Origin: Candidatus Methanomethylicia archaeon
GTDB taxonomy: Archaea; Thermoproteota; Methanomethylicia; Culexarchaeales; Culexarchaeaceae
NCBI GenBank assembly: GCA_038727515.1
Contig: JAVYVS010000001.1
Span: forward strand, 256,001 to 320,000
DNA: 64,000 nucleotides
Direction: 5' to 3'
How positions within the stretch are numbered: position 1 is the first letter of the stretch; every line of letters starts with the position of its first letter. Shown in pieces: positions 5,850-55,263 of the stretch. Under the pieces are notes generated by a model. It saw only the letters and a list, made by a program, of their open reading frames with translations, was not told the origin of the DNA and ran no database searches. Made by a program: the position numbers and the translations under genes.

Positions 5850-6542
5850 GTGTTTGGTAAAGGATATATATCTATGGTTTATAGATGTAAGTGTAGTGGT
5901 TTTATGTCTGTGGGTATTGCTTATGTTAGGGTTAGTAGAGTTGAGCTTGATGAAGAGAATCAAATTAACGCTATAAATCATTTTGCAGCTTCTAGAGGGA
6001 TTAAATTGGTGAAGATATATGTGGATAAGGGGGTTACAGGAGTTAAGAGTTTTAAGAATCGTGAAGCAGCTAATCAACTACTGGAGGAATTACCAGTTAC
6101 AAAACCAGAGGTTTTATTGGTTTTTGCAATAGACCGTATTGGGAGGGATATGAGGGATACCTTAAACACAATATTGGAATTGGAGGAAATGGGGATAAAG
6201 GTGATAAGTGTAAAGGAAGAGTGGCTTCAAACCCTAGATCAAAACATCCGTAAACTTGTGTTGAGCATTTTGAGTTGGGTTGCAGAATTTGAACGTAGAA
6301 GGCTTAGGGAGAGGCAGATGGCGGCTTGGGAGGCTGGAAAACAGAAGGGGCGTCCCCAAAAAAACTTACCCTACAAGGAAATTTTGAAGAGGCTTGAGGC
6401 TGGATGGAGTAAAAAGGCTGTTTGGAGGTGGCTTATAACTGATAGAAAGATAAATATAAGTTACGACCACTACTTGAGAAAGTTAAAGAAGTACATGGAG
6501 GAAAATAAGATAATTGAAAAGAGAATGTTGGTGAAGGAATAG
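5850..6542 (+). CDS. Small serine recombinase (resolvase/invertase family); probable start ATG 5904
   Basis: AYVRVS catalytic Ser motif, IDRIGR, AEFERRRLRER, KGRP hinge and C-terminal HTH. Confidence 0.92.
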   Translation: MFGKGYISMVYRCKCSGFMSVGIAYVRVSRVELDEENQINAINHFAASRGIKLVKIYVDKGVTGVKSFKNREAANQLLEELPVTKPEVLLVFAIDRIGRDMRDTLNTILELEEMGIKVISVKEEWLQTLDQNIRKLVLSILSWVAEFERRRLRERQMAAWEAGKQKGRPQKNLPYKEILKRLEAGWSKKAVWRWLITDRKINISYDHYLRKLKKYMEENKIIEKRMLVKE

Positions 6543-10807: not shown

Positions 10808-12148
10808 ATGGAACAAGTTATAATAGTACATAGCCGAGGATGCAGCATGGTTAGTTTCTTTAGAATACTTGATAGTGAACGACATATAGCTTTTTGTCCC
10901 ATGAATTTTGTTGCAGATGTGTACATTGGTTGCCCGCATGCTTGTTGGTATTGTTATGCTCCCTCTTTTGCGGTATACGGAAATTACGAAACAAGTTTTC
11001 AAAAATTCAGAAATTTTAGGCGACGGTTTAAGGGGGAGTCTGATTTTGAGAAAATAGAATATGCGATAAAGACAGGGAACGTTAAGGGAACATGCTGTCG
11101 CAAAGAACAGGAATCTTTTGTCTCTCTTGCCATTAAGCGTAAACATCCACTACGTATTGGTTCTGTTTCTGATCCGTTCGGCCTTCCATTAGAGAGTGAA
11201 CTAGGTGATACCTACCGAATTTTAGAAATTTTGATAGAAAATGATTACCCGTTTATTGTATGCACTAAAAGCCCTTTTGTAGCAACACCAAAATATCTAA
11301 ATCTTTTGAAGTCTGCTAATGGAAAAGCTTGTGTGCAAATTTCTTTGATTTCCTTAGATGAAAATTTGCTTAGATTTTTAGAATCTCGACCTGGAGGAGC
11401 AACTCCTTCTGCTAAATCACGTTTAGATGCGTTAAGAAAATTGTCTGATGAAGGGATTTTTACTACATGTAGAATTCAGCCCCTCATCCCTCAAGTTACA
11501 GAATATGGAATGCAGGAGCTCATTTATGCATTGGCTGAAGTAGGTGTAAAACATGTCATTATTGAGTTTCTATGGCTTCCAATGGCACATGCTAAAGATA
11601 TGGGTCGAAAGTTAAAAATTGCGTTAGACGAATACTGTAAAAATGGTGGAAAAGTTGGTCCTGAATTAGCGAAGTTCGGTAATGATATCTATATTTACTA
11701 TAAATCTTTCAGCGATGCTGAGAGAGCTTATGGTAGAATCTTTTATTCTAAAAGAAAGATGGCTGAGCTTATGCCAAAATTCGTAAAAATGATTGAAGAA
11801 GCAAATAAAGAATACAATACAAATATGACTTTTGGTTCTGGAAATGAGGAAACATCTTACCTAAACCATACTGATAATTGCTGTGGGGTAGATAGGCTTC
11901 CCGCTTTTTCAGAATATCCAAAATGCATTGGTCAAACAGTACTTAAAATTGCAAAGGATAAAGGGAAAGCAAAAATTGATGATATACTACAATTTTATAA
12001 TCCATACTTAGATAAATTTCGTACCCTGTGGACTAAAAGAGAGAGGAACGGTCGCTTCTTTCTGGAGAACAGAATTTTTAAGCTCAGAGCTTACACCCTC
12101 GGAGGAAGTGTTGAATACGTATATGATGATGCTGTTCCAAAACCGTGA
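10808..12148 (+). CDS. Radical SAM protein, divergent spore-photoproduct-lyase-like (SPL/COG1533-like) family; possible start 10847
   Basis: DVYIGCPHACWYCYA (CxxxCxxC), IGSVSDPF, CTKS, RLDALRKL..GI, RIQPLIP. Confidence 0.88.
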   Translation: MEQVIIVHSRGCSMVSFFRILDSERHIAFCPMNFVADVYIGCPHACWYCYAPSFAVYGNYETSFQKFRNFRRRFKGESDFEKIEYAIKTGNVKGTCCRKEQESFVSLAIKRKHPLRIGSVSDPFGLPLESELGDTYRILEILIENDYPFIVCTKSPFVATPKYLNLLKSANGKACVQISLISLDENLLRFLESRPGGATPSAKSRLDALRKLSDEGIFTTCRIQPLIPQVTEYGMQELIYALAEVGVKHVIIEFLWLPMAHAKDMGRKLKIALDEYCKNGGKVGPELAKFGNDIYIYYKSFSDAERAYGRIFYSKRKMAELMPKFVKMIEEANKEYNTNMTFGSGNEETSYLNHTDNCCGVDRLPAFSEYPKCIGQTVLKIAKDKGKAKIDDILQFYNPYLDKFRTLWTKRERNGRFFLENRIFKLRAYTLGGSVEYVYDDAVPKP

Positions 12149-12154
12149 TGAACG

Positions 12155-13942
12155 ATGATGCCAAGATATATACCCTACATTAAATATGTTATTGCTCCCG
12201 GTACAAGATTTGAACGAGATAAGAAAGTACTTTTTGATCCAGATGGAGAGGTTGCTCAAGGTAAACCACTTTTGAACTATGGTTGGGCTCCTACTGGTCT
12301 AAAGGAATTTATTGAAGCGTTATATGTAGCAAAAAATGGAAGTTTAGATGGTTTTAATACTTTTTACACTGAAAAAATCCTTAGTACGAATCGAAATATT
12401 ATTGAAGTATTAAGAGAGAATAATCTTATCGATAAAGAACTTTCAGCATTGTTAGTGATTAAAGTTAAAGAAGATATTGAAGTGCCTGCTTTACTTGTTA
12501 ACATTGATAGGATGATCTTTAAAAGGTGTCAGTTTTGTAATCAATCATGGAGAAATGTTAAACCGCCACAAGATTTTGTAGATTTTCTAAAGGAATTAGA
12601 TATAAAAAAGGTTGTTGAAGTTTTTCAATGCTCAAGACAGTTATGCAAATTTCTATGTGAATATTACAGTTATTGTGAGAAAAGCTACACAAGCACAGAA
12701 GGATTACAAAAAGTTGAAAATGAGAAGATTGAATGTCTTAAAAATTTGATCATGTTTATGGCTGGAAAAAACTCTCAAATTCAGGGGTATGACTGTATTT
12801 TAAGGAAAAAAATTCCATCTAGACTTGGATGTAAAGAATTGAAAACGATGAATAAAGAGATGTCATTAAATTTTAAATCTTTTAAAGAGATTATCAATAG
12901 AGCGGAGGAAATAAAATGTACAATATGTATTGAGCGTCCCTTAAGATTTGATTTTACTCCGCTACGTTATTTCTTTTTTGATCATAAAACTTGGGATTAT
13001 ATGAAAAAACAAAGGTATTGTAAAATTCGTGCTCAACGTAACATTGATGCACTTCCCACAAGTTTGTTAATTGAGTTTATCAATTTTTATGACAAATATC
13101 GTGATGGAACTCAACTTATTGCACCAGTTAATCGTGAAGGGGTACTTGAAGTATTCCTTAATGTATCAGCAGTTAAATTTGAATTAAAACATTCATTAAA
13201 ATGTAAATGTAAAGTTTGTGGATTAACTCACGAGATAACTAACATACCAATTAAAGCTATGTTTAGAGACTCGGATGTTTTCATTCATGAAGCTTATTTC
13301 GCTAATTTATTATGGAACAAGATTTGGGAAATCTATCCCAAACAATTTTGTAATACTTTCCTTGGAAAAATAAGTATCAAAATTTCAGAAAGTACTGTTA
13401 TTAAGAGAGAAGTGAAATCTAAGAGTCTTGATCCTACAAGTAGGTTTCCAGCGAGTTCTTATGACTATGTGGTAGATCTACATCCGTTGGGCGTAAATCG
13501 CTGCATACTTTTTGATCTTACAACAGGTTTATGGAAAAAAAGTGGTTTTCATGAAATTGGTAAAACAACTGAAGAATATGTGGAAACATGGAAAGAATTG
13601 TTATTTAATATTCCTAGAAAGTTGGCTAATGTTTATGCCGTTTGGTACATTGTTATTAACAGTACAGAATATAGATTTTTTGATGAAACAGCCCCCCAAG
13701 GTGTCAAAAACATTGATGGTTTGGTTGATTTAATTACTTCAGCTAATAAAGAAATTTCAATAATTATTAGATCCGATGTAGATATAGGAAACTTGAACTT
13801 AAACGTACACAAACTTGTTATAGTTCCAATTTTTAATTCAACACCACTCAAAGGTGAAGCCCGCTGGGAAATTAAACGTTTAAAAGAAGAAAAATACAAT
13901 AGATTACTTATGTGGAAAATATTAGATCACCTCTTTAAGTGA
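12155..13942 (+). CDS. Large Cys-rich hypothetical protein, possible C-terminal PD-(D/E)XK-like domain
   Basis: 595-aa ORF 6 nt after the rSAM stop; CQFC, CTIC and CKCKVC clusters; SYDYVV...ILFDLTTG. Confidence 0.75.
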   Translation: MMPRYIPYIKYVIAPGTRFERDKKVLFDPDGEVAQGKPLLNYGWAPTGLKEFIEALYVAKNGSLDGFNTFYTEKILSTNRNIIEVLRENNLIDKELSALLVIKVKEDIEVPALLVNIDRMIFKRCQFCNQSWRNVKPPQDFVDFLKELDIKKVVEVFQCSRQLCKFLCEYYSYCEKSYTSTEGLQKVENEKIECLKNLIMFMAGKNSQIQGYDCILRKKIPSRLGCKELKTMNKEMSLNFKSFKEIINRAEEIKCTICIERPLRFDFTPLRYFFFDHKTWDYMKKQRYCKIRAQRNIDALPTSLLIEFINFYDKYRDGTQLIAPVNREGVLEVFLNVSAVKFELKHSLKCKCKVCGLTHEITNIPIKAMFRDSDVFIHEAYFANLLWNKIWEIYPKQFCNTFLGKISIKISESTVIKREVKSKSLDPTSRFPASSYDYVVDLHPLGVNRCILFDLTTGLWKKSGFHEIGKTTEEYVETWKELLFNIPRKLANVYAVWYIVINSTEYRFFDETAPQGVKNIDGLVDLITSANKEISIIIRSDVDIGNLNLNVHKLVIVPIFNSTPLKGEARWEIKRLKEEKYNRLLMWKILDHLFK

Positions 13943-13955
13943 TGGTGAAATTTAA

Positions 13956-14309
13956 ATGGACTCTGAAACTACAGTTCAAAGTTTAAAAATTCTTGTTCAA
14001 AATTTTGTTGTTAAAAGGGATTGGACAAGGTATCATAATCCAAAAGATTTAGCTGAAGCTATATGTATTGAAGCTGCAGAGCTTTTAGAAATTTTTCAAT
14101 GGACTACTATTGAAGAAGCTTCTTCCTGGAAAAATGTTCCTTCAAAACTCATAAAAATTAAAGATGAATTAGCAGATGTTTTAATTTATTGTTTAAGTAT
14201 GGCTAACGTGCTTGATATCGATATTTCAGAGATAATTTCAGAGAAGCTCAGTAAAAATGAGGTTAAGTATCCTGTGGATAAATATTTTGGACGGGCTCGC
14301 TTGGAATGA
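13956..14309 (+). CDS. MazG-like nucleotide pyrophosphohydrolase (DCTPP1/RS21-C6-like)
   Basis: RDW..YHNPKDLA..I.IEAAELLEIFQW...DELADVLIY...K...N..KYP. Confidence 0.93.
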   Translation: MDSETTVQSLKILVQNFVVKRDWTRYHNPKDLAEAICIEAAELLEIFQWTTIEEASSWKNVPSKLIKIKDELADVLIYCLSMANVLDIDISEIISEKLSKNEVKYPVDKYFGRARLE

Positions 14310-54390: not shown

Positions 54391-55263
54391 CTATTTTGGT
54401 ATTAGATGTGTTCCATCACAAGTTTCAGAAGTTTGAAGATTTCTAAATCCTTCACGACAAGTTGAAAATGTTAAACCATACTCATCAACAACACCCTTAA
54501 CCATCCTCATAATTTCAAATCTAAATTTCTCAGGCATATACCTCACACCACCAATTTTAGATCCAGACTTCAAATAAAGATCCTTTAAAAGATCAGCTTT
54601 CTCTGGAAAAGATTCTAAAACTCTATTGAAATTATCTGGTTTAGCTTTATAAGTAGATGAAACCACATGTTTAACGCCAATTTCAGCAACCCTAGAAACT
54701 ATTTCAATAATACCATTAAAATCATCATTAACGCCTGGGATTATCGGGTCAATCCTCACTGAACATGGAATACCAGCTTTACATAAAACCTTTAAAGCAT
54801 CAATTCTATCAGTTGGTGAAGGAGCATAGGGTTCCAATTTACGGGCTAGAGAATCATTTAAAGTTGTTATTGTAATACTAACAGTAAATTTACCTTTACA
54901 AAGAATATCTAAATCCCTAACAACAAGATTAGACTTAGTGATAAGTATAACTTTAGCATTAAAAGACTTTAGAAATTTTAAAGTTTCACGAGTTAAACAA
55001 AGTTTACCTTCAGGTGGAGTGTAAGGATCAGAACTATTGGCAATAGATATTGGAATAGAGAGATCAGCTTTAACGAGATCACGCCTAAGGAAAAGGAGAA
55101 ACTTATCCTTAACCCTAGGTTTAAAACCATCATGAACATAAGAAGTTATATAGCAATAACGACAACCATGACCACAACCAGTATAAGGAGATAAACTATA
55201 TTTTCCAGGGCAGGTACACAAAGGAAAATTCCAAGGATCAAATCTACTTAAAACATAAGGCAT
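54391..55263 (-). CDS. SPL-like (COG1533) radical SAM protein
   Basis: PYTGCGHGCRYCY, NSSDPY, TKS.LV.RD.D, LEP.APSP..R, RIDPIIP and TCDG motifs. Confidence 0.9.
   Translation of the reverse strand: MPYVLSRFDPWNFPLCTCPGKYSLSPYTGCGHGCRYCYITSYVHDGFKPRVKDKFLLFLRRDLVKADLSIPISIANSSDPYTPPEGKLCLTRETLKFLKSFNAKVILITKSNLVVRDLDILCKGKFTVSITITTLNDSLARKLEPYAPSPTDRIDALKVLCKAGIPCSVRIDPIIPGVNDDFNGIIEIVSRVAEIGVKHVVSSTYKAKPDNFNRVLESFPEKADLLKDLYLKSGSKIGGVRYMPEKFRFEIMRMVKGVVDEYGLTFSTCREGFRNLQTSETCDGTHLIPK

Follow-up and report, generated by a model that had tools for sequence, protein, structure and literature searches.

Which task unites a radical S-adenosylmethionine (SAM) enzyme resembling spore photoproduct lyase (SPL), a large cysteine-rich protein and a MazG-like pyrophosphatase in one small archaeal operon? 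The question is raised by a locus at positions 10808-14309 of a 64,000-nucleotide stretch of a Candidatus Methanomethylicia archaeon (GCA_038727515.1, contig JAVYVS010000001.1, positions 256,001 to 320,000), referred to here as the window. The host genome is archaeal, 1.59 Mb in size and 94% complete. An earlier note on this DNA had proposed a horizontally acquired module, in which the radical SAM enzyme modifies or repairs DNA or nucleotides, the MazG protein cleans the pool and the 595-aa protein is the sensor or restriction effector. The analysis showed that the cassette is a rare, horizontally moved archaeal three-gene unit, and it is probably a conflict system of the restriction type, built around an altered base. 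The conserved and acquired module, the sensor/effector and the pool cleaner were upheld, whereas membership in SPL proper, cysteine richness as a defining trait and the neighbouring genes as parts were not.

Conservation and spread of the three-gene cassette

Three same-strand open reading frames (ORFs) were confirmed at 10808-12148, 12155-13942 and 13956-14309, with spacings of 6 and 13 nt. The ribosome-binding site reported for mazG was found as GGTGA, 7 nt 5′ of the third ATG. The first ORF is real, but its start is probably 10847, giving 433 aa, and not 10808, because GAGGA lies 5′ of the later start, which also agrees with the called product in the database and with the MVxFFR start of homologs. 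The features are as follows.

10847 to 12148, + strand: SPL-like (COG1533-type) radical SAM enzyme, 433 aa; ORF open from 10808, Pfam Radical_SAM 1e-8
11924 to 12127, + strand: C-terminal extension of the radical SAM enzyme, possibly a winged helix; homolog comparison, MntR winged-helix matches
12155 to 13942, + strand: 595-aa predicted modified-base reader fused to a restriction-endonuclease fold; AlphaFold model and structure searches
12161 to 13114, + strand: predicted EVE/YTH-type (PUA superfamily) domain of the 595-aa protein, residues ~3-124 and ~261-320; structure searches, conservation
12527 to 12934, + strand: Cys-rich insert in the reader domain, residues ~125-260, probably metal-binding; Cys conservation
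13184 to 13252, + strand: CxxC...H knuckle of the 595-aa protein on a beta-hairpin (C352, C355, H359); model, conservation
13253 to 13939, + strand: predicted PD-(D/E)xK-fold domain of the 595-aa protein; structure searches, conservation
13956 to 14309, + strand: all-alpha NTP pyrophosphatase of DCTPP1/RS21-C6 type (MazG-like), 117 aa; Pfam MazG-like match

Homologs were collected in 55 clusters for the 595-aa protein and 73 for the radical SAM enzyme, and the named carriers were Bathyarchaeia, Thermoproteota, Brockarchaeota and Aenigmatarchaeota. The neighbourhoods of close homologs were fetched for 47 loci. The radical SAM gene stood directly upstream of the 595-aa gene in 27/27 close loci with enough DNA, and a MazG-like gene was adjacent in 41/43; these close-locus counts include one copy identical to the window's and a few near-duplicates, so that somewhat fewer loci are independent. 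A search of the full library added distant homologs of the 595-aa protein (480-680 aa, 21-35% identity). A radical SAM gene of the same subfamily lay beside the nuclease gene in all eight evaluable distant loci, and a MazG-like gene was also present in the seven that could be judged. The three genes therefore co-occur in close and distant loci across genomes, in six gene arrangements in all, and the three-gene unit is real and conserved, as the proposal of a module had implied.

The spread of this unit is patchy. Profiles of the nuclease and the radical SAM enzyme (E<1e-30) matched the same 4 of 401 phylum genomes, at adjacent positions; the cassette occurred in none of 60 nearer relatives and in 3 of 400 genomes elsewhere in the phylum. 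The MazG-like gene, which is the only copy in the host genome, is looser than the other two and was found in 27/401 genomes, so it also occurs without them. No nuclease homolog was found in IMG/VR, PLSDB or INPHARED, and the sole viral match to the radical SAM enzyme (29%) had neither the nuclease nor MazG beside it.

The codon use of the cassette is foreign. The fraction of CGN among Arg codons was 0.13 genome-wide vs 0.48 in the radical SAM gene (top 0.3% of 636 genes) and 0.37 in the 595-aa gene (top 3%). The raised CGN usage claimed for all three genes thus held for these two, whereas the third gene, with only 4 Arg codons, is uninformative. Conserved unit, patchy spread and foreign codon use together bear out horizontal acquisition.

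In two loci (L027 and L028), identity to the close-clade copies is 80-85% for the radical SAM enzyme but 44-46% for the nuclease. The radical SAM and nuclease trees conflict, with approximately unbiased (AU) test p-values of about 1e-6 to 1e-5, which are optimistic as the groups were picked after the first tree had been seen. As judged from these sequence trees, the nuclease gene is exchanged between cassettes. This effector exchange suggests that the radical SAM enzyme is not matched to any single sequence specificity of the nuclease. Patchy spread, foreign codons, mobile or defence-type contexts and nuclease exchange are typical of conflict systems.

Predicted folds and families of the three proteins

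The 595-aa protein had no match in Pfam, NCBIfam, PADLOC, PHROG or PDB sequence searches, and Atlas searches gave weak nuclease-type leads only. Its AlphaFold model was confident (mean pLDDT 86). Foldseek with the whole model returned no match at E<=0.001, and the two halves of the model were matched separately. Residues ~3-330 of the full model matched EVE/YTH/ASCH domains, with THYN1 at Z 6.2 (rmsd 4.1, 151 aligned). As an independent test, the N-terminal 225 residues of a distant homolog without the Cys insert were folded and searched. For this insert-free model, a Z of 2 was reached by only 61 of 48,161 chains. Those with Z>=5 numbered 14, every one of EVE or YTH type; THYN1 led (Z 6.6, rmsd 3.3, 126 aligned), and an archaeal McrB reader was among them. 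The top 50 Foldseek rows were all YTH/EVE. The Z values are modest, yet two methods agree and the match lists are uniform, indicating that the N-terminus is predicted to fold as an EVE/YTH-type modified-base reader. Residues D22, F27, W44, F67 and P301 are invariant in the reader. In the pocket of VcaM4I, E15 binds cytosine N4 and W22/P24 lie in the base pocket (PMC7897488). By secondary-structure order, and not by superposition, D22 and W44 would fall where VcaM4I has E15 and W22/P24.

The C-terminal half, residues ~340-595, matched PD-(D/E)xK nucleases: VC1899 at Z 7.8 (rmsd 3.1, 123 aligned), BstEII at Z 7.3-7.6 and Cdn1/Can2 at Z 6.9-7.6. On the model, this half folds as a PD-(D/E)xK nuclease with an atypical D-x-T...K centre. 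E379, R418, D437, T456 and K462 do not vary even among homologs at 21% identity, and an active enzyme with a relocated lysine is the likely interpretation of the modelled centre. The two predicted folds agree with the assignment of the large protein as sensor and effector.

The description as a large Cys-rich, nuclease-like protein needed revision. The protein has 17 Cys and a predicted nuclease fold, but its Cys richness is clade-specific and not defining. Eight Cys of the insert are kept in 51-52 of 52 close homologs, and C399 is also invariant among them, like the knuckle residues C352/C355/H359. The insert is absent from 11/11 distant homologs of ~480-680 aa and the knuckle is absent from distant homologs as well. 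Comparison of the sequences thus points to the Cys-rich stretch (125-260) and the knuckle as additions of one clade. The Cys-rich region was accordingly rejected as a defining or catalytic part.

The radical SAM enzyme carries the CxxxCxxC motif at residues 29-36 and matches Pfam PF04055; C29, C33 and C36 are nearly invariant, and there is an extra N-terminal Cys and a C-terminal NCCG motif. The enzyme is related to the SPL-like group, as had been claimed, but not to the SPL family proper: it did not match the SPL model PF20903, which the B. subtilis control did match. It had no PDB sequence match at E 10, and so none to solved SPL structures. The NCBIfam scores were far below the cut-offs (PA0069 76/360, Rv2578c 52/430 and mob_pairB 67/410 bits). 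By profile the enzyme matched the host's own SPL-like paralog, which is without the C-terminal extension; identity to the host paralogs was 27-32%. The extension, of ~80 aa, is present in close and most distant homologs and absent in one distant locus (L055). Its best matches among solved structures were MntR winged helices (E 0.02), a weak hint that the radical SAM enzyme acts on DNA. The host has three or four other SPL-like paralogs, three of them at window positions 54391-55263 and at G000:C1:51688 and C1:494110. In the aligned paralog, an N-terminal CxC and a C-terminal CxG match cysteines of the cassette enzyme, which suggests a putative second metal site common to both.

The third protein matched Pfam MazG-like at 3e-18 (66 bits vs a cut-off of 27), and its acidic metal-binding motifs are present. 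The nearest solved structures were 4qgp (1e-20) and dCTP pyrophosphatase 1 (1e-16), with dUTPases at 1e-5. DCTPP1 is therefore the nearest characterised relative by sequence, which fits the proposed role of MazG as a DCTPP1-type pool cleaner. DCTPP1 hydrolyses dCTP and 5-methyl, 5-formyl and 5-halo dCTP (PMC7162842). Because the third gene is closest to this remover of dCTP and C5-substituted dCTPs, a cytosine derivative is the simplest shared substrate, and the altered base is probably such a derivative. The host also has a C5-cytosine methyltransferase-family gene, with a DUF2122 gene, directly after the EF-1alpha and S10 genes (L085:1492-2950; G000:C3:85449-86381). The three other cassette carriers have no C5-methyltransferase-family gene.

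Candidate functions of the cassette

The earlier statement that no named defence system has this architecture was confirmed: none of the three proteins had a PADLOC 2.0 match (E 0.1) or matched an NCBIfam 20 anti-phage model. In the literature covered, which leaves out most subscription papers, the trio of radical SAM enzyme, reader-nuclease and MazG was not described, and Bell et al. make no mention of MazG or photoproduct lyase. The core of an EVE/YTH fold and a PD-(D/E)xK fold is that of described type IV enzymes (PMC7641849, PMC6765204). Like VcaM4I, YenY4I and TspA15I, which are type IV enzymes of the EVE/PUA-PD-(D/E)xK and EVE-HNH kinds, the 595-aa protein has a predicted N-terminal PUA-superfamily reader and a C-terminal nuclease fold (PMC7641849, PMC6765204, PMC7897488), and like the PUA type IV enzymes it is patchily spread with copies on mobile elements. 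In contrast to them, it has no similarity to library models, large inserts in the reader and an atypical centre. It is, moreover, always accompanied by the radical SAM gene and nearly always by the DCTPP1-type gene, whereas a DNA methyltransferase lies nearby in <6% of 350 known PUA nucleases (PMC6765204). The cassette should therefore not be filed as a type IV member, since such enzymes characteristically have no linked modifying enzyme and its own cleavage activity is a prediction; it is a real, undescribed system, a variant of modification-dependent restriction.

The partners were compared in the same way. The radical SAM enzyme shares the CxxxCxxC core with SplB, PA0069, Rv2578c, mobile-pair-B and DUF1848, with weak model matches, but differs from the SplB/PA0069-type families by its C-terminal extension and its tie to a nuclease gene. 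The pyrophosphatase shares with DCTPP1/RS21-C6 the all-alpha fold family and the signature RxWxx(Y/F)HxPxxL...E..EL.E.FQW; unlike them, it is part of an operon. Ophion (radical SAM, PHP and phosphoribosyltransferase) and the prokaryotic viperins likewise place a radical SAM enzyme in a small defence-type operon with nucleotide chemistry, but Ophion has other partners, with no reader-nuclease and no MazG-like gene.

We tentatively favour, at somewhat under even chances, restriction of DNA that carries an altered base; thanks to the two partners, the DNA of the host itself would not contain this base. For cleavage, ligand, defence and an eraser role of the radical SAM enzyme, we infer the following steps. 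The 595-aa protein would bind DNA and flip the altered base into its EVE/YTH-type pocket, and the PD-(D/E)xK domain would cut nearby, so that incoming DNA with this base would be destroyed. The DCTPP1-type enzyme would hydrolyse the matching dNTP, so that the base would not be copied into the chromosome, and the SPL-like enzyme would remove or convert it in host DNA. This guarding of the host is favoured because the families of both partners remove unwanted chemistry, the nuclease is never seen without the radical SAM enzyme and the nuclease is swappable. The absence of any nuclease without its radical SAM partner (27/27 close and 8/8 distant loci) is as expected if an antidote is needed.

Several observations weigh against this favoured explanation. 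To our knowledge, no member of this radical SAM subfamily has been described as an eraser. The known type IV enzymes need no antidote (PMC6765204). In the nuclease domain, the usual (D/E)xK reads D-L-T, with Thr at the Lys position; the second acid, D454, is present in 50/52 close homologs but in 9/17 diverse ones, being lost in 8/17; and Z-scores of 6-8 lie in the range that the tool labels 'possibly a common arrangement'. Many neighbours of the cassette are housekeeping genes, the defence-type neighbours were noted at individual loci, and repair genes (uracil-DNA glycosylase (UDG), UvrD, endonuclease III and AGOG) lie near several distant copies. The host C5-methyltransferase-family gene is apparently intact and in a housekeeping position, which, if its product acts on DNA, conflicts with plain 5-methylcytosine as the trigger; that trigger is therefore doubtful.

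A different arrangement, which we consider unlikely although the strongest of the alternatives, is a new restriction-modification-like system in which the SPL-like enzyme is a writer. The enzyme would place an undescribed base mark on the DNA of the host, as self, or of the invader, as a tag; the EVE/YTH domain would read the mark and block or license the nuclease, and the pyrophosphatase would destroy modified dNTPs from turnover, making up restriction-modification by radical chemistry. The coupling runs in both directions, as the radical SAM subfamily occurs only in the four genomes (of 401) with the nuclease. The C-terminal extension that the enzyme has acquired weakly matches a winged helix, and a linked modifying enzyme is lacking in ordinary type IV systems. 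A winged helix-turn-helix (wHTH) gene precedes 18/24 evaluable loci in a controller-like position, and controller genes of restriction-modification systems are placed similarly. Matched specificity is, however, awkward to reconcile with a 44-46% identical nuclease beside an 80-85% identical radical SAM enzyme. There are no linked co-substrate genes, and SPL, the characterised relative, reverses a lesion instead of writing a mark.

Slightly less probable is a mobile damage-tolerance module, in which one damaged pyrimidine would be handled by radical reversal, lesion-directed incision and pool cleaning. There are links between SPL-like paralogs and DNA repair, including SOS regulation in some cases; the repair genes near several copies and one distant homolog fused to a LexA-type S24 peptidase point in the same direction. 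On the other hand, rarity (4/401 genomes), nuclease exchange and location in integrated elements are more in keeping with conflict than with housekeeping repair. Two redundant repair routes would not be expected to be strictly coupled, and three or four further SPL-like paralogs already exist in the host. Least probable, at roughly one chance in eight, is an RNA or free-nucleotide target or an inactive nuclease fold, with a YTH-like reader or scaffold and a radical SAM enzyme that makes or removes a nucleotide analogue in the manner of viperin or Ophion: the scores of YTH domains, which read RNA, equal those of EVE domains, position 454 is variable and radical SAM defence at the nucleotide level exists (10.1101/2025.09.30.679545), but the invariant nuclease-fold residues suggest catalysis and the pyrophosphatase is nearest to deoxynucleotide-specific enzymes.

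Under any of the leading explanations, a single non-canonical base would be the common focus of the three proteins. Fusions of base reader and nuclease normally act alone against modified viral DNA, and that of the cassette is tied to a radical SAM enzyme across wide divergence. Two questions thus become accessible in one small operon: how SPL-like radical SAM enzymes outside SPL itself act on nucleic acids, and which modified bases are important to the uncultured archaea of hot springs and sediments. If the enzyme is a writer, the cassette would also supply a branch of the SPL-like radical SAM enzymes, a large and uncharacterised group, with its first substrate. A new base-specific reader/nuclease or DNA-modifying chemistry would be a useful tool.

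Possible accessory genes and neighbourhoods

Many close copies of the cassette are larger than that of the window and carry extra genes for a wHTH protein, a 108-aa protein and an HExxH protein. The wHTH gene is divergent from the operon in the 18 of 24 evaluable close loci that it precedes; it encodes ~93 aa, stands head-to-head with the gene of the radical SAM enzyme (L006:1807-2088 and 18 other loci) and is likely the regulator of the operon. The 108-aa gene was found in 17/28 close loci and the HExxH gene in 20/28. The 108-aa and ~218-aa HExxH (HEKAH) genes lie 3′ of the MazG-like gene (L006:5930-6938 and ~20 other loci). Neither protein had a Pfam or PDB match; they are possibly accessories, either of the system or of the element that carries it. 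The host genome is without the wHTH, 108-aa and HExxH genes, and no remnant of a wHTH or 108-aa gene was seen beside the window cassette. The HExxH proteins of close and distant copies gave no mutual alignment.

Among the distant loci, L055:4895-10049 and L050:242-3494 both have a tetratricopeptide repeat (TPR) protein and an HExxH protein of 268 aa next to the nuclease. L055 has 64% GC and bacterial-looking neighbours, and its nuclease is the one fused to the S24 peptidase. In L054:4952-6159, the radical SAM gene is split into ORFs of 235 and 157 aa, by a frameshift or an assembly error.

The TatD, HEPN-MNT and AAA ATPase (archaeal ATPase_2) genes were present next to the window cassette as described. 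Their codon use is ordinary and they do not accompany other organisms' copies, so they were rejected as cassette parts. The window locus showed neither a tRNA nor an att-like repeat, and no useful signal of a promoter or terminator. A lone serine resolvase gene lies 4 kb upstream of the cassette, at window positions 5850-6542.

Elsewhere, one cassette copy lies in a toxin-antitoxin island and another adjoins an integrase and a terminase-like gene. One stands in an integrase-bearing element with a pair of NurA-like and DUF87 (HerA-like) genes (L076:6321-8897), and a similar pair was seen in L023 and L035. At L051:3792-10457, a distant cassette is followed by genes for DUF6884, an AGOG-like protein, DUF2797 and an 833-aa prokaryotic Argonaute.

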